From contig ML992509.1 of the NCBI GenBank assembly GCA_010093995.1, positions 891,850 to 955,849 of the forward strand: a stretch of 64,000 nucleotides of DNA, given 5' to 3'. The translations under genes were made by a program, and so were the position numbers. Positions 1 through 29,591 of the stretch are shown here, piece after piece (positions within the stretch are counted from its first letter, which is position 1; each line of letters begins with the position of its first letter). The DNA comes from Elsinoe ampelina (taxonomy: Eukaryota). The notes below the pieces were generated by a model. The model worked only from the letters and a program-made list of their open reading frames with translations. It had not been told where the DNA came from and ran no database searches.

Positions 1-1350
1 ATAGTTATAGCTATATTAATTAGTACTAGTAGAGTTAACCCCTTCTAATGTTATACTTCTTTAGTAAGAATAGTATTAATCCTCTCCTTAAGTATCTTAT
101 TATTTAGCCTTTATCTAACCTCCTTTATAGTTTACTAGTTTAGTATCTATCTATCTAGCCTTATATACTTATTTAAGTAATAGTACTTACTCTACTTATA
201 CTAGCCTTAATATATATACTTAGGCTTTCTAATAGGACTAGGTTTCTTATAAAGAATATTCTTAGTAGCTATAGGGAAGGCTATAGCCTCCTTACTAGTC
301 TTTATAGTGTTATATAGCTTATAAAGCTTATAGAACTATCTAAATTTAGTAATTAGTTTAAGTATAGTTAATAGAGTTAGTAAATCTAGATTAATAAGGT
401 ACTTATTAGTAAATACTAGTTTAGTTTTAGAGATAGAGAGTAAGAAGTCTCTCTATAGCCTTAAGCCTTAAGCTTCTAGTAGATTATAATTCTTAGCCTT
501 ATCTATAACCTCTTCCTATTACTAAAGCTAATAGTCTATATTCTATAAGGAAGAACTAGATAGCTACTTCCTCTAGAGTACTTTAACCTTAAGCTAAATA
601 GCTATATTAGATAGAGTAAATCTATTCTTTAAAGCTTAAAGGATAGTCTATAGATAAAGATTCCCTTCTAGCTAAATAATAGTAAGAACTTATAGTACAA
701 TTAATAACTAAATAAGGCTAGCTAAATTAGCTAAGGCCTTATATTATTTATTATACTATACTTATTCCTCCTTATATATCTAGAAGAGTACTAAGAAGTT
801 AACATTTATTACCTCTAGCCTTTAAGGCTTAGGGAGCTCCTCTAGCTTAATAGTCTTCTAAGGATTAATAAGGTTCTATATCTTAGTATTTAAAGCTCTT
901 ATCTTAATAATATATAGCTAGCTAGCCTATTTAGCTAATATAGCAAGAATAATAGGTATTCTAGCTATTAAGGTGTTAGTATCTATAGTTATTTATCTCT
1001 TTATTAACACTTAAATCCTATAGTTATAATTAAGGTAGTTCTTAATAGATTCTAATACTTAAAAAGTAAGATAATAGAGAATTAACTAATAGATTAAGTA
1101 GGAAAGTAACTAAGTAATATACTTATATAGGGGTAGTTATTCTAGGCTTATAACTATTAGCTTATATATAGGGAGAAAGAGATTTATTACTACCTAATCT
1201 ACTAAACTAAGGTAGATTATAACTATATAAATACTTAACCTAATAAACTAAGAGATAACTAAATTAATAGAACTCCTAAATAATAACAGATTAAGACAAT
1301 AACTATCTAATTTGATTATAAATTAGTAGAGTAGTAGATAAGTATTTAGT
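1..1350 (-). mobile_element. RIP-degraded Ty1/copia LTR retrotransposon, 5' part (LTR, PBS, gag); continues past the left window edge
   Basis: Very AT-rich, TpA-rich and CpA/TpG-depleted, with no ORFs. One minus-strand frame from 986 down to ~120 gives copia gag-like motifs when only C>T/G>A changes are reversed: IL..xW..W...IK.RA....IW.L.NP at the N-terminus and CxC.G.H.W..CYYL....RP.GW.P at ~160-220. A PBS-like AGTTATAAGCCT lies at 1155-1144. Confidence 0.8.
1156..1288 (-). repeat. putative 5' LTR of the copia relic (TGTTA...TAA[C>T]A)
   Basis: Lies directly upstream of the PBS-like motif. Minus strand starts TGTTA at 1288 and ends TAATA (RIP of TAACA) at 1156. The outer boundary is uncertain and the second LTR is outside the window. 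Confidence 0.4.
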
Positions 1351-9294: not shown

Positions 9295-12246
9295 ATGCCT
9301 GGAATTCTTCCCATGAAGGTCATCAAAATGGGCACGAATGCTCACATGCGAATTGCTCAAGCCTGCGACAGGTAAGAAGATGCCGGCGAATCCGGTGGCC
9401 GGTTTCAAGCTAACCACCCAAGATGCCGGAGCAAGAAGATTAGGTGCGACGGCATACGACCATGCTGTACGCAATGCGCCAACGTTGGATTCGAATGTAA
9501 GACTAGCGACAAGCTTAGCAGACGAGCTTTCCCGAGAGGATACACCGAGTCGTTGGAAGAACGAGTACGAGTACTGGAAACCGAGGTGCGCGAGCTAAAA
9601 GACTTGCTGGATGAGAAAGACGAGAAGATCGATATGCTCACGCGGATTCATCCGCACCGACATTCGCCTCCATCACAATTGCCGTCGCCCAAGGCGTCGA
9701 TATCGGCACCCTCCTCAGGCGGCGCATCTCCACAGGCTGTTGACGATGTAACCTTTACCGTCCAACAATCGCCTTATTTGACAGCGGACGGAAGTGATGA
9801 CTCCTACTTTGTCGGCACTTCCTCCGCGTCATCATTTCTTGGTAAGTGCTTTTGCGTTAGCGACCAGCGCGCTCGCTGACCAAAGGTAGAATCTTTCAAG
9901 CAGAAAGTTCAGGAAAAGGGACGATCATCAACTGATGTGAAGCCCTCGAATCTGCTGAAGACCGCAGCCAAGCAGAACGCCAAATCCATCTCTGCTGTAC
10001 TATCACCACTTCAGTCGCGTCCGCCTCCACGGCTAGTCTCCGATCAATACGTGAACATCTTCTTTCAGGAGTGGGCACCGCTGTTCCCAGTCCTGCATCG
10101 TCCCACATTCTTAGGGCTGTACGAGCAATTCACTTCATCGCCCGAAACGATTACCGACAAGAAGAGCATTGCTCAGCTCTACCTCGTGTTTGGCTTGGCC
10201 GCTCTGTCACAAAACGTAAGTCAAGATCGACACTCGTGCTCGCCTTCTCCTTCGTGCTGATATTAGATTAGTCACAACAAGCATCGGAAGTCTCGTCTTT
10301 CGAGCTCCAATGGCAATCTGCTCTTCAACAAGTACAGACTGAGCAATCTCTAGCGACCTTGCAGTGCTTGCTGTTGGCACAGCTCTTCTGCATGCAGAAA
10401 GGAGACTGCGCTCAGTTGCTAACCTACAAGGCCCTCGCTGTGTCGTTGTCCGCACGTCTTGGCCTCCATCAGTCCCAGAAGCGGTATGCGTTCGGTACGT
10501 TGACATGCGAGACAAGGAAGAAGGTCTTCTGGACCCTCTATACGCTCGACAAGTAAGTCTACGTTGTGAATGATCCCAATATCTGGACGCTGACTGTGCC
10601 CAGCTTCTCCGCAGTCATACTAGGTCTGCCCAAGCAAATCCGGGACGATGAAGTCTTCTGCGAGTATCCCGTCGATGCCGATGACGAGTACATCACCGAG
10701 AAAGGCTTCCAACCTCTTCTTCCAGGAGAGTCTACTCGAGTGTCAAGCGCTTTGGCCCTCTTTCGCGCAGCGAGGATTCTTTCGAAAGTCCTTGAGCAGC
10801 TCTATCCCGCACTGCCGTCGTACGATCTGTCCATGAAGAAATTGGCAGAGCTGTCCGAAGAGCTCGATCAGTGGCAAGCGTCTTTAGCACCTCACCTCCG
10901 CCTCCCATTTGCGCAAGATAAGCCGACTGTCGGAACAGTCAGCAGCCGCTCACCCCTCCTGGTACGGCATTCTCTCCTTCCCATATATAAGATCTCGTTC
11001 TAACGCTTCACAGTCTCTTACCTACCACTACATTCGCACTCTCATCCACTGTCCTGCTGCCTGCTCTGCAGTTGACGGCACATCTTCATCAATGATCGCT
11101 CTGGCTGGATCATCCAAGCACCTGGCTCAGATCCTGGCTCTGTTGACCGAGCGCGGACTGAGCTTCTCCTTCTGTCTCAACAAAGAAGAGCTTCTTGTCC
11201 TCGCTGGTTTCGGTTCGCTAATGCAGACTCTCGATCTGGAGGACGGCAGCAAGGTTCTCCGAGACAACCAGAAGACACTCGCCCTCATCATCAGTCAGCT
11301 TGATCAGATGAAGGCGTCCGTGGCGTCCGAATTCCGTCGTGTGGCATGTTCATACCTGCCAACGTCGCGCCGCGCCCCAAGCAATTCCTCGTCTTCGTCG
11401 TCCTCTCGTCATGGATCTCTAGGATCAATGCCTGCGCCGCATCATTCCACGATCCCTGCAGCGGTGAAACAACATTTTAAGGCTATGACCTCCAAGTTCT
11501 GGCCGGACAGGACAAACGAGCACGCTCACCTGCAGCGTCGTATGACTTCAGCAGGGCCATATCGACACAACTCTCATGCACAATCGGTCCCTGCTTTGTC
11601 GCCTGGTGAACAGCCCCGGCTGCCGCGCTCTGAACCAGCCCGAAGTCCTCAAGACACCCACTCTGTTCTCAACAACAGCAGTCACAGACTTTCCGCTTCT
11701 CCCACCCATCAGCAGCCTATCCACCAGAAGCAGCCTCGCGCCAGTCTCAACCTCGATTATCTCTCCTTCAGTAGCGGCGCCACTACACCGACTGTAGCGG
11801 CCCCTGTAAAGAACGCTAACCAGTCCGACTGGGAGCGTCTCCTCGCAAATCTTGACAACGGCCAGACCAACATCTTCGACAACATCTATGGCGGGCCACC
11901 GATGGAAATGTTGCAAGAGTCGCACAAAGCTACACCACAGCAACCAATCCAAAGCGTCAGCACAAGCGATCTGGAGGGTACTCTTGGCTGGGATCCGAGC
12001 ATATGGGCGGTCACAGCTAGCGACTTGACTCCTGTCCACACAAACCAAACAACAACGGAAAGCGTGGCCAGTCTATCAAGCAGTGACGAAAGCAGAGGAA
12101 GCGTAATGCCTCAAACGCTAGGCTTTGACGATCTCGGAAACATTGATGACTTGGAAAGCTATGGAGGTCTGATCATGCCGGAGGTAGCGAACAGTGATGA
12201 TGGATTGTGGGATGACAGACTGGATAATACCTTTGTATTGGCTTAA
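9295..12246 (+). CDS. facB: Zn(II)2Cys6 transcription factor FacB/Acu-15 (Cat8/Sip4-like; acetate utilisation)
   Basis: Spliced N-terminus [11 protein letters not shown]...[57 protein letters not shown], plus a fungal TF domain ([35 protein letters not shown]). Introns at ~9372-9422, 9842-9889, 10216-~10266, 10553-10603 and 10962-11012. Confidence 0.92.
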
Positions 12247-12583
12247 AGGGGTGGACTGGCGCTGAAGGGAAGGCTTCATGATTTGGATTGATACCAAGAT
12301 ATGTACCATGTGGTCGACAGAACAAGGATGGCTTTGTTTGTCAGATATGATAGGCAATCGAATGATTTTGTTCCCAGCCATGGCGCTTCTTTGCGTCTCT
12401 GAGCACGTGTATTCACATGTCAGGAGCAACCTGCCACGAGGCACATGGAAGGTTCCAGCTGCAGGCTTTTCACAACTCACACCTGCAGAGTCTGCGAGCT
12501 GACATTCCCTCCTTTCGATCACACGCCTTGAATCAGCCGAGACTACCAGACCGCCATCGCCATATCTGCTCTCCAAAAAGACC

Positions 12584-13479
12584 ATGGCAAACCCCCAAGA
12601 TGCTAGCAGTACCCAACCAGGGGTCGCGGCTGATGATAAGGCTTTCGAAGCTGGGACAGGGCATTTCGAGAACCATGCCTTTTACAAGTCAGTGTCCTTG
12701 CATCGCAACGAGTCTGCATGGATTTTACTAACTGCTTCAGGCTCTATCAGACCGGTATCTTCTCCGATTGCAAGATCAAATGTGGTGACATTGTCTTCAA
12801 TGGTCACGTTTGCGTGTTAGCCAGTGCCTGCAAGTGGTTCGAGACGGCTCTGTGCGGTAGCTTCAAGGTGCCTAGGTTCCGCAATGTAGGCGTTGCAAGG
12901 ATATTGACTGACCCGCATGTCTAGGAAGCCGAGGAGAAGACTGTCGACCTGAGTGCAGACTCTTGGACTACAGTCAAGATGCTCATCAAGTTTGCATATG
13001 GCTGCCAGGTTGGATCATTGTTGTCCGAGGGGAATTACTACAGTGACTACATTCCGCTGTACAGTCTCGCCGATCGTGTTGGATACAACGCCTTGAAGGA
13101 GGCAGCCGGCCGATTCCTTCATGCAGGAGTCACTAAGTACAGTTGGACTCAAGCTACCCTACGAAAGATTCTTCGGATGTTAGATGAGCACTCGCCACCC
13201 AACGACGACACACTTTTCCGTGTCGGAAAGGATCTGGCTGCAGAGCATGTCGACCTCCTGAAAAGACTTACTCCGGTTCAATTTCAAGCTTTCGTGAACG
13301 AAGTCCCTTTTTTTAGTGCCGTCGCCCTCAGCCTATTCACGACGTCCCCGAAGCGCCGTGCGACATGGAAGTGCGAAGCCTGCTCGATCTTTTTCAGTCT
13401 CCCGGCGACGTGCAAGGCGCCCCAGCAGTGTCCGCCCTGCAAAAGTGATAAGACGGCAAAGATTCAGGACGGGCAGTGA
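12584..13479 (+). CDS. BTB/POZ-domain protein with C-terminal CxxC..CxxC zinc ribbon, paralog 1
   Basis: Exons 12584-12687, 12741-12867, 12925-13479. LYQTGIFSDCKIKCG..F.GH.CVLAS...WFETALCGSFKEA; LYSLADRVG; WKCEAC...CPPC. Confidence 0.85.
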
Positions 13480-14046
13480 TGTAAGGCAGTTGGCAGAATC
13501 AGCGGACCTGCCGGACGAAGGCAATCAGAGGGCACTGGGAACGTCTTCGACATAGCGTGGGGACTTGAGTAGTGACCGCAGAACAAGATGCACATGCCTT
13601 CAGAAGCCACAAGCTATTCCGCGCGTGACTCGCACCAATTCATCTTGAAGAATACATCTATTTATCTATTGCCCTCCTGCATCCCATCAGTCAGCGTTTC
13701 GCTTCGCCTCTAACGCGTGATCGCTACGGATGTATATGCATTTCGTCCGGATGCGGCTACTGTAGCCTCCAACTTCGCTCCGAAACCGTGTGTAGAAGGC
13801 GCGACGCGATCGACGTGTATTAACCATATCCTGCTACGCCATCTTGCATAGAACTACAGTACGATTGGAATCGAGTAGTCTTGTCTGATAAATGGATGTA
13901 ACTACCAATTCCACGATGAAGCTGCTGTTGAAGACCTCCATGTGGTCGGAGAAGCCCAAGCTGCAGCCCTTCACCTCGGGGCCAGCACATTGGGAGAATC
14001 AAAGCATGTATAAGTAAGTCCTACCAGATAATGATTCGGAATAAAG

Positions 14047-14952
14047 ATGGACAATGGAAACGGTATTTCTGCGTCCAGCAAGTATCCTCTCACCACAATC
14101 TCAAGCATCCAGGATGAGCCTGGCCACGATGCCGGGGACCGGCGTTACTCCTTGTACGGTATTGCCATCACAGCGGTGACCAGCTAACTGCGTATTCGGT
14201 ATCGCATTGCATGCTCATTGATAACCTGACTCAGCCTGTACGCCTCTGGTAGGCTCTCTGATTGTCGAATCGACTGCGGCACCCACACATTCCACGGTCA
14301 TGTTATCATCCTCGCCAGCTCCTGCTCATGGTTCGAGAAGGTCTTGACTGGAGGCTTCAAGGTATGTGTGGCGCGCATCTTATATCTCTGGACCACGGAC
14401 TGACACTCCCGGGAAGCAAACGAGCGAGTCATCGACTTCTCTGAAGACAACTGGGACACCATCTCCGCCTTGCTTTGATACATCTACGGCTGCAACCTGG
14501 ACTCCGTCTTCTACTCGAAGAACAACCAGATGAACCGCCATCTCGACCTCTACGCCCTCGCAGATCGACTTGGCTACATGACTCTGAAGAAAGCGGTCAA
14601 GCACCACCTGGACGAACTGGCCAAGACATGCAAGCCCAAGTCCAACTCCCTCCTGCACTTCCTCAAGCACCTGGATGAGTGCTGCCCGCCAGACGATCAC
14701 TCGCTACCGAGGATCGGGGCGCATGTTGTGGCTGCGAATGTGCCTCTGATCAAGAGTTTCTCGACGGAGCAGCTGCAGGCGTTGGCGAGTGAGGTGCTAC
14801 GCTTCTGTGGCCACATACTAAAGCTTGTGGTGGAGGAGAAGGATGATCGGTGGGTGTGTCTGAAGTGTGCGGAGTCGTGGAGGTGTCCGAAGGGTGGTAG
14901 GGCTGTTGTAGCTTGTCCGAAGTGTAGGAGTGGGAAGGTGCAACAGTTGTGA
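14047..14952 (+). pseudogene. BTB + zinc-ribbon paralog 2, inactivated
   Basis: Exon 2 (14235-14361) is homologous to the other paralogs. The intron-2 acceptor is CGG (14410-12) instead of CAG, there is an in-frame TGA at 14476-78 where paralogs have R/K, and the intron-1 donor is not at the conserved position. C-terminal WVCLKC...CPKC is still present. Confidence 0.8.
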
Positions 14953-15290
14953 AGGAGATGTGGGCACTTCTGTACGGTACATGAGATACATTGTGGTAGG
15001 TTTCACTCATAATAAGCACGGCTCGGGAGACAGCTCCAAGGAGTCCCAAGAAAATGGGACCATGGCAGAAGAGCAGTGGCGGAACAAGGAGCGGCAGTAT
15101 GTGACAGAGCTGGCAAGATCTGTGTCATGTGAAGGGCAGTCCATTTGTCATTTTCCCGACATGTGAAAGCGCTTGTCACCAACCTGTGTGAGTCCGACTC
15201 AACTCAATATCTTCTTCAAATTGATTTCAGAGAAGGAATTTGTAGCATCAAGCGCTCTCCTACAACTTATTACAATTACTCACGCACGTC

Positions 15291-16171
15291 ATGGCTGCAC
15301 CAGAGACGCCTCCGAGCAAGGGAATCATGGGTGGATCTGAATTCAAGGGAACGTCTATGAAGTGGGAGAATCACGACATGTACTAGTAAGCCGACCCGCA
15401 CTATGTATCGTGCTCAATGTTGACAACACAAACCAGCCTCTACAAAACCGGCGCCTTCTCCGATTGCAAGATCATCTGCGGTCCACATACCTTCCATGGT
15501 CACATCTGTGTACTCGCTTGCGCCTGCAGCTACCTGGAGAAGGCATTTTGTGGAAACTTCAAGGTCAAGCTCACAGATCCATCAGGAGACAGCAAGAGTC
15601 TGGTATGACACAGGAAGCCGCCGATAGAACCCTCGACATGTCGAACGAGGAACCAGTCGTCGTCACTGCTTTCCTACGATATACATACGGCTGCCCGTAC
15701 AAAGACGTGTTCGAGATCGATGCACGAAACATTGCCAACAAACTCAACCTCTACATCGTTGCCGACAGGATCGGATATGCCAATCTCGCCACGACAGCAA
15801 TGAGCTTTCTGAAGACAGCGTGCAGCAAGAAGGCAGAAACCAATGTCGACATCTTCCACGACGCTATAGATGCCCTTGAGGGATATGTCATGACGGGTAG
15901 CTCTGCATCTGATGCTCTCTTTCACGAATACGCAATGTCGAACATTCCGCTCCTGAAAAGCATTCCTTGGGAGAAGCTGGAGTACCTCACGACAGACTAC
16001 CCACGGTTGATCAAGGTGATCATGCCCCTTGTCAGAGAGCCCAAGGCGAACGTCTACTGGCACTGCAACAACTGTGATATGACGATTGACATCGTTGCCA
16101 ATGCATGTTGTTCTCCGGGTATGACTCTGGTATGTCCGGACTGTCAAGCTGAGCTGGATCGCCAGGCATGA
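15291..16171 (+). CDS. BTB + zinc-ribbon paralog 3
   Basis: Exons 15291-15385, 15437-15563, 15614-16171. WENHDMYYLYKTGAFSDCKIICG; LYIVADRIG; WHCNNC...CPDC. Confidence 0.85.
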
Positions 16172-16620
16172 TTCTCGGTGGCTGGCTTGCAGAGACACAG
16201 GTCGGCCAACTGCGTAGCGATGAGAGGAATGATTCCCGCTACTGTGGTGACGTACTGGTACGAGACGGGCAGGAGACTTATCATTCGAAGCGTTTCGCTG
16301 CGTGAAAGGGCCAGCAGCATCTATAGCTCGAGCCGGACACACAGTTTATGATTACATGAGCAAACTCTGCTTCAGCTTCCGCGTACAATTTGAATGTTGT
16401 CTACGTGAGTCGCTCATGGAATCTATACAAGGTCATCAAACGCTCCACCTTTGTCACTGTCTCTGAGCATAGACAGAGCCCTTGTTTGTCAAGTCTTGCA
16501 ATTCCTGCAAGATTGTGTGTGCTGGTTTCACATTCGCCATAGCAAAAGGATGGTCACATCCCTCTCTTTCTCTTTCTCATCAGCCTTCTCACACATCTCT
16601 GCAGCGCGCCTTTTCCAACC

Positions 16621-17490
16621 ATGGAAGACGTGGAAGAAAAGATCGAGACACTCGCCATGGACACCAACATATTCTCCGGCAGCGCTGCGAATTGGGAGAG
16701 CCGCAATCTCTACGAGTAAGACGGTACGCCTTTGCCGAGCAAGCCTATACTGACCTGATAGTCTGTATAACACTGGCGACTTCTCCGACTGCAAGATTGT
16801 GTGTGGCGATAAGATCTTCCATGGTCATATCTGCGTCCTTGCGAGTGCGTGCAGCTATTTTGAGAAGGCTTTGATTGGCTCGTTCAAGGTAAGTAATACT
16901 TGCGGTAGACAGCGTCACCCACTCACGTGAGCAGGAAGCAGATGAAAAGACACTGGATTTCACCGAAGACGGATGGGAGCTCCTCCAAGCTGTCATGCGT
17001 TTCGCGTATGGATGTCCTTACTCACAGCTCTTCGGCACCAGCGATCGTTTCCTCTCCGCAGAAGTCAAGCTGTACGGCCTCGCGGATCGTATTGGGTACT
17101 TGACGCTCAAGAAAGCTGCAAAGGAGAGGTTGGTAACAAAGGTGAAGGTCATGGAGGGAGACTTCGAGCAGCTGCGGGCATCTGTCAAGATACTGAAGGA
17201 GTACGACATCCCTGGCGACGACACTCTCCAGGGGTTCGCCGACACTCTGGTTGCCAACAACATCGTTCTACTCAAGAGCGTGGACCGAGAGAGATTTGAG
17301 GAGCTGGTTGAGGAAGTACCCAGCTTGTGCTCCGTTCTTCTGTCACTGTGTTCGGCGCCGGTCTCGGAGGGGAGCATGTTGGAAGTGCGAGGAGGAGTTC
17401 AAGTGTCGGAAGAGTCCTGAGGGTGATTAGACCATCAAGAGGCCTTGTGCGTGTCCATGGTGCAGGAGTACGCGTGTGGCGAGGGTCTAG
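16621..17490 (+). CDS. BTB paralog 4; zinc ribbon frameshifted (ORF stops at 17420, relic ribbon runs to 17490), possibly decaying
   Basis: Exons 16621-16715, 16762-16888, 16935 onward. The BTB domain is intact. CWKC...(TAG 17428-30)...CPWCRSTRVARV* lies in a shifted frame at 17377-17490. Confidence 0.75.
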
Positions 17491-17893
17491 CTCAGCATCG
17501 TTCTAGACTAGCCATAAGCAAGGCAGGAGACGGAGACAGATGGAAGGATATGGCCGCGCACAATGAGAGACCATGAAGCCGTCTTTTTTTCTCTGACTAA
17601 GGTCCAAGATCTGGGTATATAGCTCGTATCCTGAGAAAATTTGAGGAGACGGAAGAGCATGCTTTGGTCAAGACATACGATTTCTTTAAGTGTCTGCAGA
17701 CTGCAAGGTGCAGGACGATATACCTGTATCTTAATGAAGGATCGTCCTGGTCGATACAGACTTCGACAAGCAGAATTCTATGTCCATAGCCGTTCGTTGG
17801 AAAACCATGGTAAAGCAGGGCCCCGCCATGGATTTACTGTCGTTCAAGGGAGTCAGAACAACAAAAATACCATCGTAGTATCCCACTTGACGT

Positions 17894-18852
17894 CTAGACA
17901 GCTCTCAAAGAGGTCGATGTACCTCGACAGTGAGGGCACCTCCAGGGATTGGCCTCCTTTGTCGAAGTATTGAATGTTACGTTGCACTGACGACACCGCC
18001 AGCCATGCCAGTTCTCCTGCTCTTCTTCCAATGCAAGCTTGTGCTCATCGCATTTGGACTGGGATTTCGCCAATTTGTCAGTAAGTTTGTTGATCAGCTC
18101 TCCATCCTGCGTGATCTTCAGTAACAAGTTGGAGCAGAAATCGGGCACCTCAGCGGCCAGCTCAGATAGCTCGTGAGGCTCCGCTTGACGCAGAATTACA
18201 ATATTACACTGGGTGAAGAGCTTCGATATATCCTTCAGAGTGTTGTCCCTCGGAGGACTCGTTTCGTGTAGCGATACCAGGGTTTCTCGTACCGCGGCGA
18301 AAGTCTTCACGGGGGTTACAAACGCTTTTTTAAGCCAATTTGCGCAGGCATTCTTCAAGGAGTCATAGCCGATGCGATCTGCCAGTCCATATAGGCAAAT
18401 ATGTTGAGTATGAGAATCGGTGTCTGGTAGAATGGTGTCAAACGGGCAGCCGTACATGTACTTGAGCATGCCCGTCACGAGAACCCAGTCGTCATCGCTG
18501 AAGTCGAGCGTACGAGTCTGACCTTCCTGTCTGATTGAGCATTCATACTCTGACGCGAGGAGGTGCGATTGACTTACAGAGAAATCCCCGCACAACGCCT
18601 TCTCGAAGTAGGCCGAGGAACTAGCAATGACGCAGAGATGGCCCTTGAACACGTTCCCCTGGCATTTGATCTGACAATCCGAGAAGACGCCGGTGGTATA
18701 CAGGCTGCCGATGATCAGCTTGACGCGATGAGAGAAACGCGGCGACCATACTTGTAAAAGGAATGGTTCTCCCAACGCTCACTGGTCACCTCAAAGGGCC
18801 GTGGCTGCTCTTCACTTGGAGCCAGTGCTTGTGTCGCTTGCTTTGGAGGCAT
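17894..18852 (-). CDS. BTB + coiled coil + zinc-ribbon paralog 5 (inverted)
   Basis: Exons 18852-18752, 18704-18578, 18526-17894. WENHSFYNLYTTGVFSDCQIKCQG; LYGLADRIG; WRCRQC...CPHC. Confidence 0.85.
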
Positions 18853-19353
18853 TTTGTCGACGTCCCCCAGTGATGTCTCAACCAGGTGGTAGTGCTAGAG
18901 CAACTTTACAGGTAGTGAGAATCTCGTAAGTATCGACTGTCAATCGCAAAAATGAACGACGCGGTCTCTCAGCGACTAGCATGCAATCTCGGACGAGGCA
19001 CCTCGGGCATGTCCAACCAATCATGCGACGCCGTGCCGACCACACCCATGAGGCCTTCAACTTCAAGGGTAGGCATTCTGCACGCCTGCAAGCTCGTGTA
19101 GCGCAGAAAGCGTATGATACAGTAGCATCCGAGAGGCAACCTGCCTCAGAAAAGAGTATGTGAACGAATATGTCCGCCGAATGATGGTCAGCCCCATTCT
19201 GACGTCAGTCTTGACATGATCAGCCACACGGGCAATCTGAGCAATACTTGATTCTTCAGTCCCATACGGCTCCCTACCGTTCATCAAGTCATCGCAGGCA
19301 CGCGCTTTCGAAGATGCAGAGTATTTCAGCTTCTCGCTGATAGTTCAATCCCA

Positions 19354-20868
19354 ATGGACCGGGCACTGCTGCGTAGCCTTGTCCTTCGACAAAGTGCTCA
19401 TGCCAGACCTCATCTATCACGGGGAGTCTGCTATCGGCAAACACTTCCGCAAACTTGTCACGCCTTCAAAAGACCATACCTCCCCCAGCGGATACCTTGG
19501 CCCACTATACGCACATACGCAACCAATCCGCCCACCACGACGAGCGATCCCAAGCATATCTCGGACCAGGTGACGGAATCATCCTACGCTCAACCTGCCT
19601 CTGAGCTGTCTCAGACCATTACGCCCGAAGAGAAGTCGCATTATGCTGAGCTCGAATCGCATTCGAAGACTGCTCAATTGCGGTCTCCCTGGACCCGCGC
19701 TTCATCCGATGTACCTCCCGTTCATGCCTCGCGGAACGCCTCGGCCATGACGAAAGGCAAGCTCCTCACGACGCCGAGCAGAATGCTCAAGCTCATCATC
19801 CCGCTTGCACCTGTGGACATGAACGACACCAAGAAAGATGTTGAGCCGTTGGCATTGTTCGTACACCCTCAGCAGCCATTGAGCTATCTGGAGAGGCTGA
19901 TACAGAGCGAGCTACCATTCATCAAAGAAGGAAGCAAAGAGCGAGCCCCGAACGTCACGTTCCGCGCAGAGGATCCCGAGGCTCACGAACGGGGGCCGGA
20001 CAAGAGAATGGGAGACCTCAGCGGCGAAGGCAAAGGGCCCAAGGACAACAATGAGGGTGGTCGGGACGAGGACGAGTTTATGATGATTGATGGGAAGCTT
20101 GAACGCACAGGCAAGCTCAACGGAAAGAAACAACCACGGCAAGAAGGAGAGGGCCGAGAAGACCTGCTCAATCCCGACCTTGAAGGCAGGAAGTTCATAA
20201 GATGGAGTCCCAGCACCGAGATTGGCGACTTTATCAGGGACGCCTCTGCCGGCAACCTCTTCCTGATCTCGATCGAAAAGTACCCTCACCCCATTCCAGT
20301 GGCTGTTCCCACCTTCAACGAGAGGACGTACTACCTCCGCATGAGACTGCGCAAAGTCTCCGGCAAGATCGAGGGCATGGCAGGCGTCAAGGCAGACTGT
20401 GACCGCATCGCCAGACAAGGCGCGAAGAGGGTCGCTCAGCTGGGTTTCTGCGGACTGGTGGGCTGGTGGTACCTCGTCTACCGACTGACATTCGAGACCG
20501 AGCTGGGTTGGGACGTCATGGAGCCGGTGACCTACCTCGTTGGTCTGAGCACTTTGATCGGAGGTTACCTCTGGTTTTTGTACCACAATCGAGAGGTCAG
20601 CTACAAAGCGGCGTTCCACGTCACGGTCTCGAAGCGTCAGGCGGCGCTGTACGAGAAGCACGGTTTCGATCAAAGTCTGTGGGACGGGTTGATTGAAGAG
20701 GGCAACCGGCTGCGGAGGGAGATCAAGATGGTGGCAGAGGAGTATGACGTGGAATGGGATGAGAAGAAGGAAGCTGGAGAGGAGGTGGAGGAGGCTTTGA
20801 GGAAGGAGCGAAAGAAGCAGAAGAATGGCGGCAAGAGGAGAAGTCGGGATGATGAGGATGATGATTGA
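19354..20868 (+). CDS. MCU: mitochondrial calcium uniporter
   Basis: Arg-rich targeting peptide, HPQQPLSYLERLIQSE, and two TM helices flanking the WDVMEPVTY (DxxE) selectivity filter. Confidence 0.95.
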   Translation: MDRALLRSLVLRQSAHARPHLSRGVCYRQTLPQTCHAFKRPYLPQRIPWPTIRTYATNPPTTTSDPKHISDQVTESSYAQPASELSQTITPEEKSHYAELESHSKTAQLRSPWTRASSDVPPVHASRNASAMTKGKLLTTPSRMLKLIIPLAPVDMNDTKKDVEPLALFVHPQQPLSYLERLIQSELPFIKEGSKERAPNVTFRAEDPEAHERGPDKRMGDLSGEGKGPKDNNEGGRDEDEFMMIDGKLERTGKLNGKKQPRQEGEGREDLLNPDLEGRKFIRWSPSTEIGDFIRDASAGNLFLISIEKYPHPIPVAVPTFNERTYYLRMRLRKVSGKIEGMAGVKADCDRIARQGAKRVAQLGFCGLVGWWYLVYRLTFETELGWDVMEPVTYLVGLSTLIGGYLWFLYHNREVSYKAAFHVTVSKRQAALYEKHGFDQSLWDGLIEEGNRLRREIKMVAEEYDVEWDEKKEAGEEVEEALRKERKKQKNGGKRRSRDDEDDD

Positions 20869-21088
20869 GAGCTTCCGGGATGGCAACGTCTGGCATAGCG
20901 ATCGTGGGGTTTGTTTGGTAATCATTTCTGCCCTCCAGCGACGCGGCAGTACATCGACAGATGAGTCTCCAGCTGAGACTACTTTGACACATGAGCCTAG
21001 CGTATGTATAGCTTTTGGCAATGGTATTCCGAGATCTATATCTACGAATGGCGCGAATCTATGCAACAGCTGATGGAGCAGCTCTTGT

Positions 21089-21925
21089 TCATGCTACAGT
21101 GGTATTGTACGCCTTTGGAAGGTACTTGAAGCTCGCCGGGCATCCGACACCCTCACCGACAGGCTCCACTCGTTCATAACGGCCATTTGCGATCGATCCT
21201 CTCACGTTGTACGTGTACCAGACTTCATACACCTCGCCATTGCTACACCTAGGAAGAGCCGTGATCCCACTAGGCGCCTTCAATGCCGCCACAAAAGCAT
21301 CATAGGTATAGTTCTTAGCCGTCGTTGGCACAATACCAGCAGCTTTCAAGTACTGCTCCACGTTAGCCTCTATTGCTCTCCAACCAGAAGCTCATCCTAC
21401 CTGATACGTCGGCAACTCCCTGAACAACCTCGTCGCCTGCTCAAAATAATCCACCACCTCCTCCTGCGGCTTGTATCTCGCAAAACATTCCGGTCTCAGC
21501 GTCGAATAGCAAGTCCCATGCTTATTCCACTCGTGCTCCCAAAAACTCTCATCGTCCCCCGCCTGATCCTTCCAGTACTTCTGCATGAACTTGAGGATCT
21601 TCTTGCCCCTCCCGCCGGCCGCCTGCAGGATAGACGTGATGTTGGTGTACTCCCTGCTCGGGTCGCAGAATTGCTCGTACGTGCCGTCGCAGTTGTCGGG
21701 CCAGAGGCCGTGGATGGTCCAGTGGTCTGAGGGGCCGGTGGGGGGGTTGGTGTCCCAGAATTGGACGGAGAGGATTTGGCCTTGTGATTCTACACAGCAG
21801 GTGTTTGTGATGGTGGTGTTGGTGTGGCAGGAGAGGGGGGAGTGGAGGGGGCAGTGAGGGGCGAGGGCTGAGGCGGAGTGGGTTAGGGCCAGGATGGTGG
21901 CGGGGAGGAAGGTGGAGGCACGCAT
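21089..21925 (-). CDS. secreted ribonuclease T2
   Basis: Signal peptide, CAS I WTIHGLWPD and CAS II FWEHEWNKHGTC. Intron 21400-21353. Confidence 0.95.
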
Positions 21926-22988
21926 GATGGGCGGAGAGAGGGACTTGTGAAAGATAGTCGTGGTGGATGGAGGACTTACCTAGAGGTGATTGAGCTGTAT
22001 ATAAGCCCAGGTTGTCGGGGGAGACGGACAGGATCTTCGTGATCAACGCAAGCATTTTTTTCGAGCCCTGAGATGGTTCCTGAGATGAGCAGCCAATTGA
22101 AAGCTGTTGTGGTTGTTTGGGGAAGGACAGGGTAGGTCGACCTGCCACTTTGGGTTGGCAGAGAAGCATCAATGATCTGCAGCGATAAACACGTGCAGAA
22201 AGCTTCGCTTGAGCTTGGCTATCCTCGACCCGAGTGTGCCGTTTGTCTTTGAGCGCACAGACACAAGAGATGCGAGTGGCGAGAGTGGAAGCGAGATGAT
22301 GATGGTCATGGATCTTTGAACTTTTCCATACCGTCCTACAGCAACAATCGACAATCTCTCGACTAGTACTCACCAGTAGTACATACCTACCTCTGCATTT
22401 CGATCAGTAAATAGCTTCGAAGATACAAGGGCGAGTTGTGTTGTGGTCACAAACTCAGAGCGAATGGCTGTTCTCACCTTGACGTGGTGGATTTAACCTC
22501 GGCTATGCTTGGCCAAGTTGCAATGCCAACCATTTGCATTACCACCATCTTCATATTCACTGCACCAACGAGTGTGATGTGAGTGCTCTGACAACGTCAC
22601 TGACAACAAGAGGCTGCGGCAGTGCTCCAGATGCCAGAGATCAGTGAACGTGAACAGGATCGAATGCTGATGCCTTGACCTTGACAACGGCAACGAGCGG
22701 CCGTATCCTCCTCGGAACTTGTTCTGATTGGGCACTCACGCTGACCTCAGCCATGACAGATCAAGTAATACAGTATTGTAGCTACATTCCTCTTGGGGGA
22801 GAAACATGGTTGACGCGGCAGCTATTCTTGCTGCCTTGTGTGACATGTCCACGGCGGCGGCCAGCATGTTGTTAATAAGCAATCTTCGCTGCTCACATGG
22901 ACAGCCATCACCATCGACACTGCCTGGGGGCCCGCGACGCTAGTCTACATCCAGGTGCAAAGGCTACCATTCGTGGATGTAATCAACT

Positions 22989-27105: not shown

Positions 27106-28107
27106 TCATCCTTGAAAGATATTCTGGGCCTTGTACCACCACCTTTGGCCTGTGCGATTCCGCCCTTCGTCATCGATCCACCAATTGACCTGGTAATTGA
27201 GATACGCTGCTCTGGAATCGAGAGTGCAGCCTCCGCAGACGAACCGCTTCCCACTACCGTAGAAAGTGTCGATCAATGTCAAGACGACCGGGATTGCCAT
27301 GAGGAATATCGCAATACCCTTGGACCACCAAGAGCTGAAACCACTCCTGTGTCGGTAGTGCTTCCTCCCCCAGCCTACTCCGGTGATGACGATGGAGCCC
27401 ACTATCATGAGACACGGAGTCGCGACCTTGAGCGAAGTCGTGTTGTTGTCCATGAAGGCAAATGCTTCATTGAGGCAGTCAGGCAATGACGTATCAACGA
27501 TGATGCCTGGCTTGCCGAAATTCTGTACCATGCCCTGCAGTGCCAATGCGAACGCAGCTCCCACCAAGACCCAGTAGAAGAGGTTCATAGACTGAGCAGT
27601 CGTTCTTGAAAGAGCCAGACCCCCTTCTCCTGTAGTCCCGAATCGATACATCCACAGCTTCATCGCCACTGCCAGAGTCGTCGCCAGAGCGCCCGGATCG
27701 GTGACCGCGACCCCATATCCCGCGACTGCATCATAGATGCCAATGACGAGTACGGCGATCTGTATCAAGGCCCAGACGGAGAGTAGTGCATCACCAACGC
27801 CGTAGCCTGGATCGCTCTCGGCTGGTCCGGTGAGGTATCTCTTATACGTCACCAATGTTGGGAGTAGCCAGGTCGCATAGCCGAGATAGTTGGTCGTCAG
27901 GAGAGGTGGGCCTGGTGCGAGCCCACACCCGTCAACGCTGCCGGGTGCTGCCAGGTATCTGGTGTCTTCCTGAACGCAACTGTCCGGTTCGCCGGGGGCT
28001 GACGTACATGGAAACGTGGGCTCCGGTGGTGGTTCGAAATATTCTGTTTCGGTTGGAGAGAGGGTCAACTCGGTGAAAGAAGGGTAGGTAACGAACGTGG
28101 AAGCCAT
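27106..28107 (-). CDS. hypothetical multi-pass membrane protein (~333 aa) with a Pro/Cys-rich N-terminal region
   Basis: Long intronless ORF with about 6 hydrophobic segments; likely start MASTFV at 28107. No family recognised. Confidence 0.65.
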   Translation of the reverse strand: MASTFVTYPSFTELTLSPTETEYFEPPPEPTFPCTSAPGEPDSCVQEDTRYLAAPGSVDGCGLAPGPPLLTTNYLGYATWLLPTLVTYKRYLTGPAESDPGYGVGDALLSVWALIQIAVLVIGIYDAVAGYGVAVTDPGALATTLAVAMKLWMYRFGTTGEGGLALSRTTAQSMNLFYWVLVGAAFALALQGMVQNFGKPGIIVDTSLPDCLNEAFAFMDNNTTSLKVATPCLMIVGSIVITGVGWGRKHYRHRSGFSSWWSKGIAIFLMAIPVVLTLIDTFYGSGKRFVCGGCTLDSRAAYLNYQVNWWIDDEGRNRTGQRWWYKAQNIFQG

Positions 28108-29591
28108 GACTGATGACGAGTGTGCCACAAGCCAGAAAGGAGACGTCTGAGTACTATTGACGACCACCGACTCGTACTCAGCACTGCTTAAACATGCATC
28201 GTCGCAGCTGAACAAGCTGCAAAAAAGGCAATTGTGGTGGCGCAAGCTGAAGCACAACTTCGGCTGTGTGCATGATGGCTTGTATGCATCCAATCGAACA
28301 CCGTACAGAGGGGTTGCCAAGTGCGGCTGGAGCAGTCCTTAAGGCGTGTGTTTTCTGAATAGAGAGAGCTGAGGGATGCATGGTAAGCGTGTAATCCAAT
28401 CGTAGTCGTATGCTCTACTCACAGTTTTCGTGGTGTGTTACACTGACCAGAGGATCGATAGATTTCCTTATCATCCCCAGTATGCCCATCATTAGAACTG
28501 ACTTACCGACACTACTCTTTGCTTCATCCCTCAGCGTCTCACTTGTATTTTGTGCGTCCTTTAAACCGACCGAGAGCTTCCTCACTTCAAATCGACTTCA
28601 GTTGGCGAATTTGCATTCTCCAGACAGGCCTCGCATGCCCCGCGAGAGTCACTCCCAAGCTTTTGGGACCCATTGTCTCGATGACACGTGCCTGTCATGC
28701 GTGCTAATATACGCGGCACAGCCGCAAAGATAGTATGTTAGCCAGGAATGAAAGATTGACGTGGTCAGGGTTGATCCAACTATCTATCGAAAGATCCGTA
28801 GCCCCGCAGCCCGACATTAAGACCGTATGTGCCGGTTGCGAGGGCTAAATGAGACAGATCTGTCATACGAAGCTTCCGCGAAACTTGGGCATATGAAATA
28901 GTATCATTCTCGAATCGCTACCTGATGATCGTAAGTGATGCGTCGTAGATATACTAACACTCTACTCTTGTCGGCACTCCGCTCAAGCAGGTCGTGACAG
29001 GTATAGGAGCACGGCGGTGCTCGACTCTTCAACCGCCATCCAGGCTCTGACCTGACCACCTCTCATCAGTAGTATGTCTCACGCTGCATCCTTGGATCTT
29101 CACTCTATGAGGTACACAGACGCTCCGAGAAGAACGAATCCAGTCGCATCTCCTGGAACAACACCCCTTTCGATCGTATCAGTAGTACTTCTAAAGCTCC
29201 ATTAAGGCCGAGCTATTTAAGCTGAACCGGCTAGACCCGGATGGCTTTCTTCGCGCAGCGACACTAGGAAACAGGCTATCGTCCAGCCATCTGATCCAAT
29301 ACTTGCCGGTCCGGACACAGCTTCAATTGGAGTCAACCTCCAGGATTCGTGAAATGGCTGCTTGGAGGCAGTATATCAACAAGTCGAAAATGCCAATGAA
29401 CACCCTTCTTCTCTAGAAGACTGCAACCCTAGAGGGGCAAACGCGCTATCTCACGCCAACAGATCGATGGGAGGTAGTAGTTGCGTGACACGCTTGCGTA
29501 AGCAAATCCCGCCATGTGCATATCCTCATCTCGCAGAAAGTCTTCGCCGGCATTCCGGCGACCGGAAGTATCCCGTCCAATGCAGCAAGCC

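Follow-up and report, generated by a model that had tools for sequence, protein, structure and literature searches.

An old tandem array of small BTB–zinc-ribbon genes in Elsinoe ampelina, most likely encoding Cul3 substrate adaptors

The described systems closest to the genes analysed here are SPOP and the plant BPM proteins, which join MATH to BTB, and the proteins that carry a C-terminal module after BTB-BACK, among them KLHL3, KLHL11, KLHL22, KBTBD4, KEAP1 and vaccinia A55. In KLHL3 the phi-x-E motif touches Cul3 and an E85A change disrupts binding (PMC3616122). Here we describe a tandem array of five paralogous three-exon BTB loci (g1 to g5) lying within 6.3 kb, at 12584..18852, of a 64,000-nucleotide stretch of Elsinoe ampelina DNA (contig ML992509.1, positions 891,850 to 955,849 of the forward strand; hereafter the window). 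We propose that this old array belongs to a subfamily of small BTB proteins of Myriangiales fungi whose members are most likely Cul3 substrate adaptors, a reading to which we assign a probability of about 0.68. It builds on a common gene structure with splicing at g1 and g5, a predicted BTB/3-box/BACK fold, a retained phi-x-E motif, a C-terminal four-cysteine (C4) zinc ribbon, old duplication and two gene losses.

Like SPOP and BPM, the array proteins have a BTB domain, 3-box and short BACK that superimpose, and they keep phi-x-E; they differ in having no N-terminal MATH domain, in carrying the C4 ribbon and in being only 20% identical. With the BTB-BACK-Kelch adaptors and A55 they share the order of domains, but their last module is a 35-residue zinc ribbon rather than a Kelch propeller and the whole protein measures 259-286 amino acids. 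Expanded BTB/POZ families, multi-copy and uncharacterised, are also known from fungi: an expansion is reported in mushroom-forming fungi (Agaricomycetes; PMC10282164) and high-copy genes in Rhizophagus (PMC8647823), and there are unnamed BTB clusters in Ascomycota. In their accessible parts these papers describe no BTB-BACK-zinc-ribbon architecture, Dothideomycete arrays or substrate. A table in another study lists BTB/POZ among infection-expressed domains (PMC3828140), BTB serves only to mark the neighbourhood of effectors in the available portion of a paper on the E. fawcettii genome (10.1101/2019.12.19.882142), and the words 'BTB' and 'ubiquitin' are absent from the text of an E. ampelina review (PMC8295512). 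In paper listings and the openings of abstracts we found no published fungal BTB-BACK-zinc-ribbon family, in line with a sequence-only reading of this DNA that had suggested that the family may be undescribed, and subscription papers and supplements may describe one. Filamentous-fungal Cul3 adaptors have received little study, and the accessible text of the papers on expanded fungal BTB families assigns these families no targets. The array further resembles the birth-and-death ubiquitin-ligase adaptor families of nematodes and plants, reportedly described by Thomas in 2006, in its clustered paralogues, conserved putative cullin-binding part, variable other end and dead copies; unlike those families it is small, and its duplications are old and shared between species.

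The loci and the two genes that flank them, in window coordinates, are:

12584..13479, + strand: g1, intact BTB/3-box/BACK/zinc-ribbon gene, 261 amino acids; exons 12584-12687, 12741-12867, 12925-13479
13916..14952, + strand: g2, broken copy; exons 13916-14013, 14235-14361, about 14413-14952
15291..16171, + strand: g3, intact copy, 259 amino acids; exons 15291-15385, 15437-15563, 15614-16171
16621..17490 (end about 17490), + strand: g4, broken copy; exons 16621-16715, 16762-16888, 16935 onwards
17894..18852, - strand: g5, intact inverted copy, 286 amino acids; exons 18852-18752, 18704-18578, 18526-17894
9376..12246 (start not mapped), + strand: left flank, Zn2Cys6/Fungal_trans transcription factor (Pfam)
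19354..20868, + strand: right flank, mitochondrial calcium uniporter (MCU), the synteny anchor (Pfam)

A six-frame motif scan of 12300-19200 returned the same three sequence signatures five times, in agreement with the sequence-only reading, which had placed five adjacent BTB loci here, four on the plus strand (g1-g4) and one inverted on the minus strand (g5). Exon 2 is, as it had also noted, exactly 127 nucleotides long in every copy (12741-12867, 14235-14361, 15437-15563, 16762-16888 and 18704-18578 for g1 to g5), with AG before and GT after each, and the introns do fall at equivalent positions, with phase 2 for the first and phase 0 for the second in 5/5. Three copies are intact, their frames open after splicing (g1, g3 and g5, of 261, 259 and 286 amino acids), and two, g2 and g4, are broken; the introns of g3 are predicted from sequence and paralogue register only. 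The start codon of g2 is uncertain (13916 or 13940), its intron 1 (14014-14234) measures 221 nucleotides against 46-53 in the other four copies, and its intron 2 lacks a canonical acceptor that would keep it in register with the other copies. The N-terminal motif that had been proposed for all five copies recurs in four but not in g2, which reads WENQSMY/LYASGRLSDC. Likewise, the proposed C-terminal Cx2C..CPxC ribbon is in frame in g1, g3 and g5 but lies behind an in-frame stop in g2, near 14477 and early in exon 3, and is lost from g4, where a frame shift near 17350-17375 ends the product at 235 amino acids and the ribbon remnant sits in the other frame and contains a stop. The g4 break is not an assembly error, because contigs of two studies cross g4 without a difference (16415-18525, P2, and 17195-17504, P3), one of which may come from the window's own strain. 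We looked by eye for a short intron that would bypass the break and found none; the contigs run across unspliced. No sixth copy or relic exon, the long g2 intron included, was found by a six-frame profile scan of the whole 64-kb window, in which the main segments score 71-253 bits, far beyond chance, with a profile built with these five genes included.

Splicing was read from contigs of 4 of 11 listed runs, taken by guess to be RNA, whose strand and level are unreadable. Among the contig pieces listed, 5/10 predicted introns show spliced joints, all with canonical ends: intron 1 (two runs) and intron 2 (one run) of g1, intron 1 of g2 (one run), and both introns of g5 (3 of 4 runs each). Those pieces contain no joint for g3, g4 or intron 2 of g2, which is not evidence of silence. 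One contig shows intron 1 of g2 spliced out and another shows it retained, and the profile scan places no family relic inside it.

Pfam recognises the BTB domain (PF00651, cut-off 20.5) in g5 at 36.1 bits, in g1 at 35.2 bits and in exon 2 of g3 at 26.4 bits, and matches it at E<=0.1 in 15/17 aligned members of the family, among which it finds neither a MATH nor a Kelch domain. An AlphaFold2 model of g1, made from a 93-row alignment, has a mean predicted local distance difference test score (pLDDT) of 88.9 and runs from BTB (from residue 34) through helices (132-216) to three strands bearing the four cysteines (222-257), with low confidence in the N-terminal ~25 residues before BTB. Foldseek ranked SPOP first for this model (E 2.5e-7), and so did a second, Foldseek-independent fold search (VIA), which gave SPOP Z 14.3 with a root-mean-square deviation (rmsd) of 4.5 Å over 175 aligned residues (model 17-213), ahead of vaccinia A55 BTB-BACK (Z 13.8), NPR1 (13.3), KLHL22 and KLHL3 (12.4) and KEAP1 (12.3). 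Helices 132-216 superimpose within SPOP 178-354 and A55 1-174; the 3-box/BACK helical hairpins after BTB are thus present by fold, and weak by sequence. The alignment of the family profile with KBTBD4 spans positions 33-192, corresponding to BTB plus BACK, and the profile matches BTB-BACK-Kelch proteins at E 2.6e-12 to 6e-9. The phi-x-E motif, in the alpha3-beta4 loop, is kept in 22/22 clade rows (F-K-E in g1-g4, F-S-E in g5), and the G-s-F-k-E of the family profile aligns on S-N-L-K-E of KBTBD4. The earlier suggestion of a BTB family with Cul3-adaptor-like anatomy is borne out by the Pfam match, the SPOP-like predicted fold and the motif, and fold and motif together make a Cul3-adaptor role likely. 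A single-sequence fold of g5 (mean pLDDT 41.6) was not used, and a two-copy complex prediction for g1 residues 18-258, in which the alignment went unused, scored 0.16 against a mark of 0.32 and is evidence neither way.

After BACK only ~45 residues remain, modelled in g1 as a three-stranded ribbon. The ribbon spacers of g1 to g5 are 15, 15, 19, 21 and 15 residues, and the four cysteines are kept in 12/13 full-length clade proteins examined. In g5 alone an extra charged helical stretch of ~25 residues lies between the BACK region and the ribbon (window 18000-18110). Zn_ribbon_8 matches 4/17 members (best E 0.00027) and HypA 2/17, all below the Pfam cut-off; for g5 the scores are 16.3 bits (cut-off 34.4) and 19 bits (cut-off 28.9), respectively. 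Nearest to the ribbon among known models are generic ones from bacteria and archaea (DUF134/MJ0401, FmdB), with template modelling (TM) scores of 0.69-0.79 over 40-44 residues, and every one of these model matches falls under the bar for naming. An Atlas feature search with the ribbon alone reached a best score of 0.76 and gave no lead, and the wide fold search is no test of the ribbon, since residues beyond 218 barely aligned.

In our picture the SPOP-like BTB plus 3-box/BACK platform would use its phi-x-E loop and its 3-box to grip the N-terminus of Cul3. The ribbon, sitting where BTB-BACK-Kelch proteins carry their substrate domain, would then act with the variable BACK surface to choose targets for ubiquitylation. 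If this is true, a 260-residue adaptor in which a zinc ribbon replaces MATH or Kelch would represent a new substrate-binding design in an easily tested protein. A different account, which follows proposals for vaccinia A55-like or transcriptional BTB proteins, would make these proteins Cul3-independent scaffolds or Cul3 decoys, in which BTB regulates other BTB proteins or titrates Cul3, no substrate is delivered, and the ribbon is structural or binds nucleic acid. The presence of A55 BTB-BACK and NPR1 among the top fold matches and the ribbon's nearness to generic bacterial and archaeal ribbons, at the sub-threshold scores just given, are compatible with such a role. However, the position-specific retention of phi-x-E and of the BACK region argues for Cul3 use, and a ribbon that varies across many paralogues fits varied partners more easily. 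We regard scaffolds or decoys as quite unlikely.

E. ampelina is a fungus of grapevine and E. fawcettii its relative on citrus. In E. fawcettii the MCU gene is D9617_2g059080, and the BTB genes 059090, 059100, 059110 and 059120 (two fused units) come next, in an order that matches that of the window. In a tree of 24 rows, g5 pairs with 059090 (support 98/96), g4 with 059100 (94/92) and g3, weakly, with the second half of 059120 (90/72); for 059110 the tree gives no clear partner in the array. Constraining g1-g5 to one clade costs 70.5 log units and is rejected by the approximately unbiased (AU) test (p-AU 2e-14). For every pair of paralogues and every region the synonymous difference (pS) lies at 0.49-0.93, near saturation, and alignment between copies at the DNA level extends to just exon 2 and one 47-nucleotide patch. 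Because of the E. fawcettii pairing, the rejection of a single clade and the near-saturated synonymous sites, we take the duplications to be older than the split between the two species, contrary to the recent or species-specific expansion first envisaged. Orthology was seen within Elsinoe only; the one-to-one orthologues across distant fungi that would have refuted the sequence-only reading did not appear. Gene loss is ongoing, as g2 and g4 are broken while 059100, the E. fawcettii partner of g4, retains the ribbon that g4 has lost. Since the array is older than the split and two of its five copies are broken, death is recent and birth is not; of the birth and death claimed in the sequence-only reading, the death stands and current birth does not. 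The copies would have been born by tandem duplication before the split, been mostly kept in place, diverged faster than the neighbouring gene and been lost one by one, a slow birth-and-death turnover of which death alone would be visible now. A single gain or loss in each species is possible, though on the basis of partial gene models. The array adds a dated case: a second species has orthologues of it, its two losses are recent, and splicing is confirmed.

In Sphaceloma murrayae and E. australis the distance between MCU and BTB genes is 8 and 10 locus tags, respectively, on contigs whose lengths match, which points to the same region, though not to genes directly adjacent as here. Among 850 candidates none from E. 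batatas matches g5, although the MCU of that species is 95% identical; this could be loss or missing annotation. A second cluster of three members (KAF2221988-90) sits on the same 1.44-Mb contig outside the window, 13-15 accession numbers before g1, and has counterparts in E. fawcettii, 059200 and 059210.

Several points weigh against an old array of Cul3 adaptors as we have presented it. At ~35 residues the ribbon would be a small recognition domain, and it is assumed to have that role because of where it sits in the protein. Pfam BACK_BPM_SPOP matches just 1/17 members (E 0.042), SPOP is only 20% identical at 4.5 Å rmsd, and Z scores of 11-13 are reached by NPR1, BCL6 and further BTB proteins, so that the predicted fold by itself does not fix function. 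As to age, g1, g2 and the first half of 059120 group together (86/88) without clear pairing, the E. fawcettii order is read from locus tags rather than DNA, three of the units in E. fawcettii come from partial or fused models, and the one-clade test was chosen after the first tree had been seen.

Mean identity among the paralogues drops along the protein, from 56% over the first helix and exon 2 through 37%, 28% and 27% to 23% in the ribbon (6 pairs, g4 excluded). The sequence-only reading had singled out exon 3 as the divergent end; conservation does fall from 56 to 23% towards the C-terminus, but exon 3 also holds the second half of the BTB domain and the 3-box/BACK helices in addition to the ribbon. 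Between E. ampelina and E. fawcettii, g5 and 059090 are 55% identical compared with 81% for MCU, and g4 and 059100 are 51% identical overall and 56% (110/195) from BTB to BACK, where the profile is flat. KAF2221990 of the second cluster is 57% identical to its E. batatas sister, KVT40_007946, compared with 95% for MCU, and two intact pairs of that cluster lose identity towards the ribbon, dropping from 65 to 20% in one and from 60 to 18% in the other. KVT40_007946 has no ribbon cysteines, either by independent ribbon loss or by mis-annotation. Orthologues diverge fast (~55% versus 81% for MCU), and most at the ribbon. Nonsynonymous divergence (dN) exceeds measurable synonymous divergence (dS) in 2/36 pairwise region comparisons, both of which set a ribbon against that of the broken g2 and rise above noise barely, if at all, and saturation makes the ratio unreliable either way. 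The gradient fits a variable recognition end and fits relaxed constraint equally, and one control gene with saturated dS cannot separate them. Repeat-induced point mutation (RIP) as the cause of copy divergence was ruled out, the RIP indices in the array being those of the flanking genes.

If the gradient marks a recognition end, each paralogue might recognise a foreign or selfish protein, from a mycovirus, transposon, competitor or incompatible nucleus, and send it to Cul3, with an arms race on the BACK/ribbon end. Such surveillance is compatible with the adaptor role that we favour and would explain orthologue-like pairs only 51-57% identical beside an MCU at 81% (E. fawcettii) or 95% (E. 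batatas), as well as the fall in identity towards the ribbon in the two intact pairs. The clusters, pseudogenes and copy turnover resemble those of nematode BTB/MATH and F-box adaptors, as presented in the accessible text of one paper (PMC12951971), and BTB/POZ genes are over-represented near known effectors in one fungal survey, of which part was available (10.1101/2019.12.19.882142). However, the array contains no recent duplicates, lies in ordinary 52% guanine–cytosine (GC), non-RIP DNA between two conserved genes, and shows one difference, at 17893, in the few contigs from other studies; dN passes dS only in the two comparisons with g2, hardly above noise; and the rate contrast rests on one control gene. 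We consider surveillance unlikely. Much the same doubt attaches to the broader proposal that ascomycetes maintain repertoires of clustered, minimal Cul3 adaptors in which the loops of the zinc ribbon vary and serve to recognise proteins of foreign or selfish origin, and it is with similar reserve that we mention zinc-ribbon Cul3 adaptors as an undescribed ubiquitin-based arm of fungal innate immunity, with this array as one old, slowly turning-over locus. Were the targets foreign, a new branch of fungal immunity would follow.

If the gradient instead marks relaxed selection, the copies would be largely redundant duplicates: folding and Cul3 contact would preserve the BTB core, the rest would drift, and copies would decay at random, with no specific targets. 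Two broken copies out of five, the missing ribbon cysteines of KVT40_007946 and an identity of 23-28% among paralogues in 3-box, BACK and ribbon would all be expected of drift. But three copies remain open despite saturated synonymous sites, the ribbon cysteines are kept in all but one of the 13 full-length clade proteins, the copies hold their positions in E. fawcettii, and exon 2, with a nonsynonymous difference (pN) of 0.17-0.36 among paralogues versus a pS of 0.58-0.75, is under clear purifying selection. These observations render relaxed selection throughout unlikely. It is hardly credible that the array encodes secreted effectors acting on the plant Cul3 machinery: matching records identify the host fungus as a plant pathogen, and BTB genes lie near effectors in the accessible part of one survey (10.1101/2019.12.19.882142), but none of the five copies has a hydrophobic N-terminal stretch (maximum 11-residue hydropathy -0.34 to 0.67), and Myriangium duriaei is one of several fungi outside Elsinoe from which relatives are known.

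A phmmer search against 1.84 billion representatives gave 126 matches at E<=0.001 and 14 at 1e-10. In a quick tree of 102 domains, made of the five copies and domains covering at least 110 profile positions (P0001, P0003 and P0006, which duplicate copies of the array, left out), one clade of 21 rows has a support of 99 in the Shimodaira–Hasegawa-like approximate likelihood ratio test (SH-aLRT). The members with a named source are from E. ampelina, E. fawcettii, E. batatas, E. australis, S. murrayae, M. duriaei and Dothideomycetidae sp. 11243. A profile search with the family alignment returned four proteins, all already known, and the nearest Atlas clusters are Ascomycota BTB proteins (score 0.97). 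The C-terminal four-cysteine motif is present in 27/78 homologues of 200-340 amino acids, and 15 of the 27 fall outside the clade, Venturia inaequalis and Phyllosticta among them. The architecture is therefore not confined to one lineage and is found in the Myriangiales, Venturia and Phyllosticta. The array holds an uncharacterised variant of the BTB-BACK Cul3-adaptor type, is real, and is older and wider-spread than first proposed, with defence as no more than a lead; taken as a whole, the interpretation offered by the sequence-only reading is partly supported.

Two of the intact copies are in the databases at 100% identity and full length, g1 as KAF2222003.1 and g5 as KAF2222005.1 (both Elsinoe ampelina), and g2 has no record among the homology matches. 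KAF2222004.1 (462 amino acids) is a mis-fusion of g3 exon 3 with the 235-amino-acid g4 product (window 15614-17420), and E. fawcettii 059120 is a similar two-unit fused gene model. Such BTB arrays are probably undercounted in databases.

Of the flanks that had been named facB and MCU, MCU is confirmed by Pfam; on the left Pfam supports a Zn2Cys6/Fungal_trans gene, for which the name facB comes from its zinc-cluster sequence and from no database. The contig at 16415-18525 carries spliced g5 and then runs unspliced across the whole of g4, which would fit antisense read-through from g5 over the broken g4. Upstream of MCU one contig skips 58 nucleotides (19156-19213) with GT..TG ends, possibly a non-canonical acceptor in the 5' leader, or an artefact. 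Window positions 1-1300 hold AT-rich, RIP-type DNA (GC 26%, TpA/ApT 1.88, (CpA+TpG)/(ApC+GpT) 0.08). Three long open reading frames, at 21074-21730, 21549-22403 and 27106-28338, have no Pfam match (0/3). The other genes of the window, between 1663 and 63247, encode by Pfam a G-patch/GCFC splicing factor, a fungal rhodopsin-domain protein, a sterol glycosyltransferase-like protein, a second Zn2Cys6 factor, a flavin monooxygenase, a GDP-mannose pyrophosphorylase-like protein, a ThrE exporter, a Yme1-type AAA protease and an ING/PHD protein.

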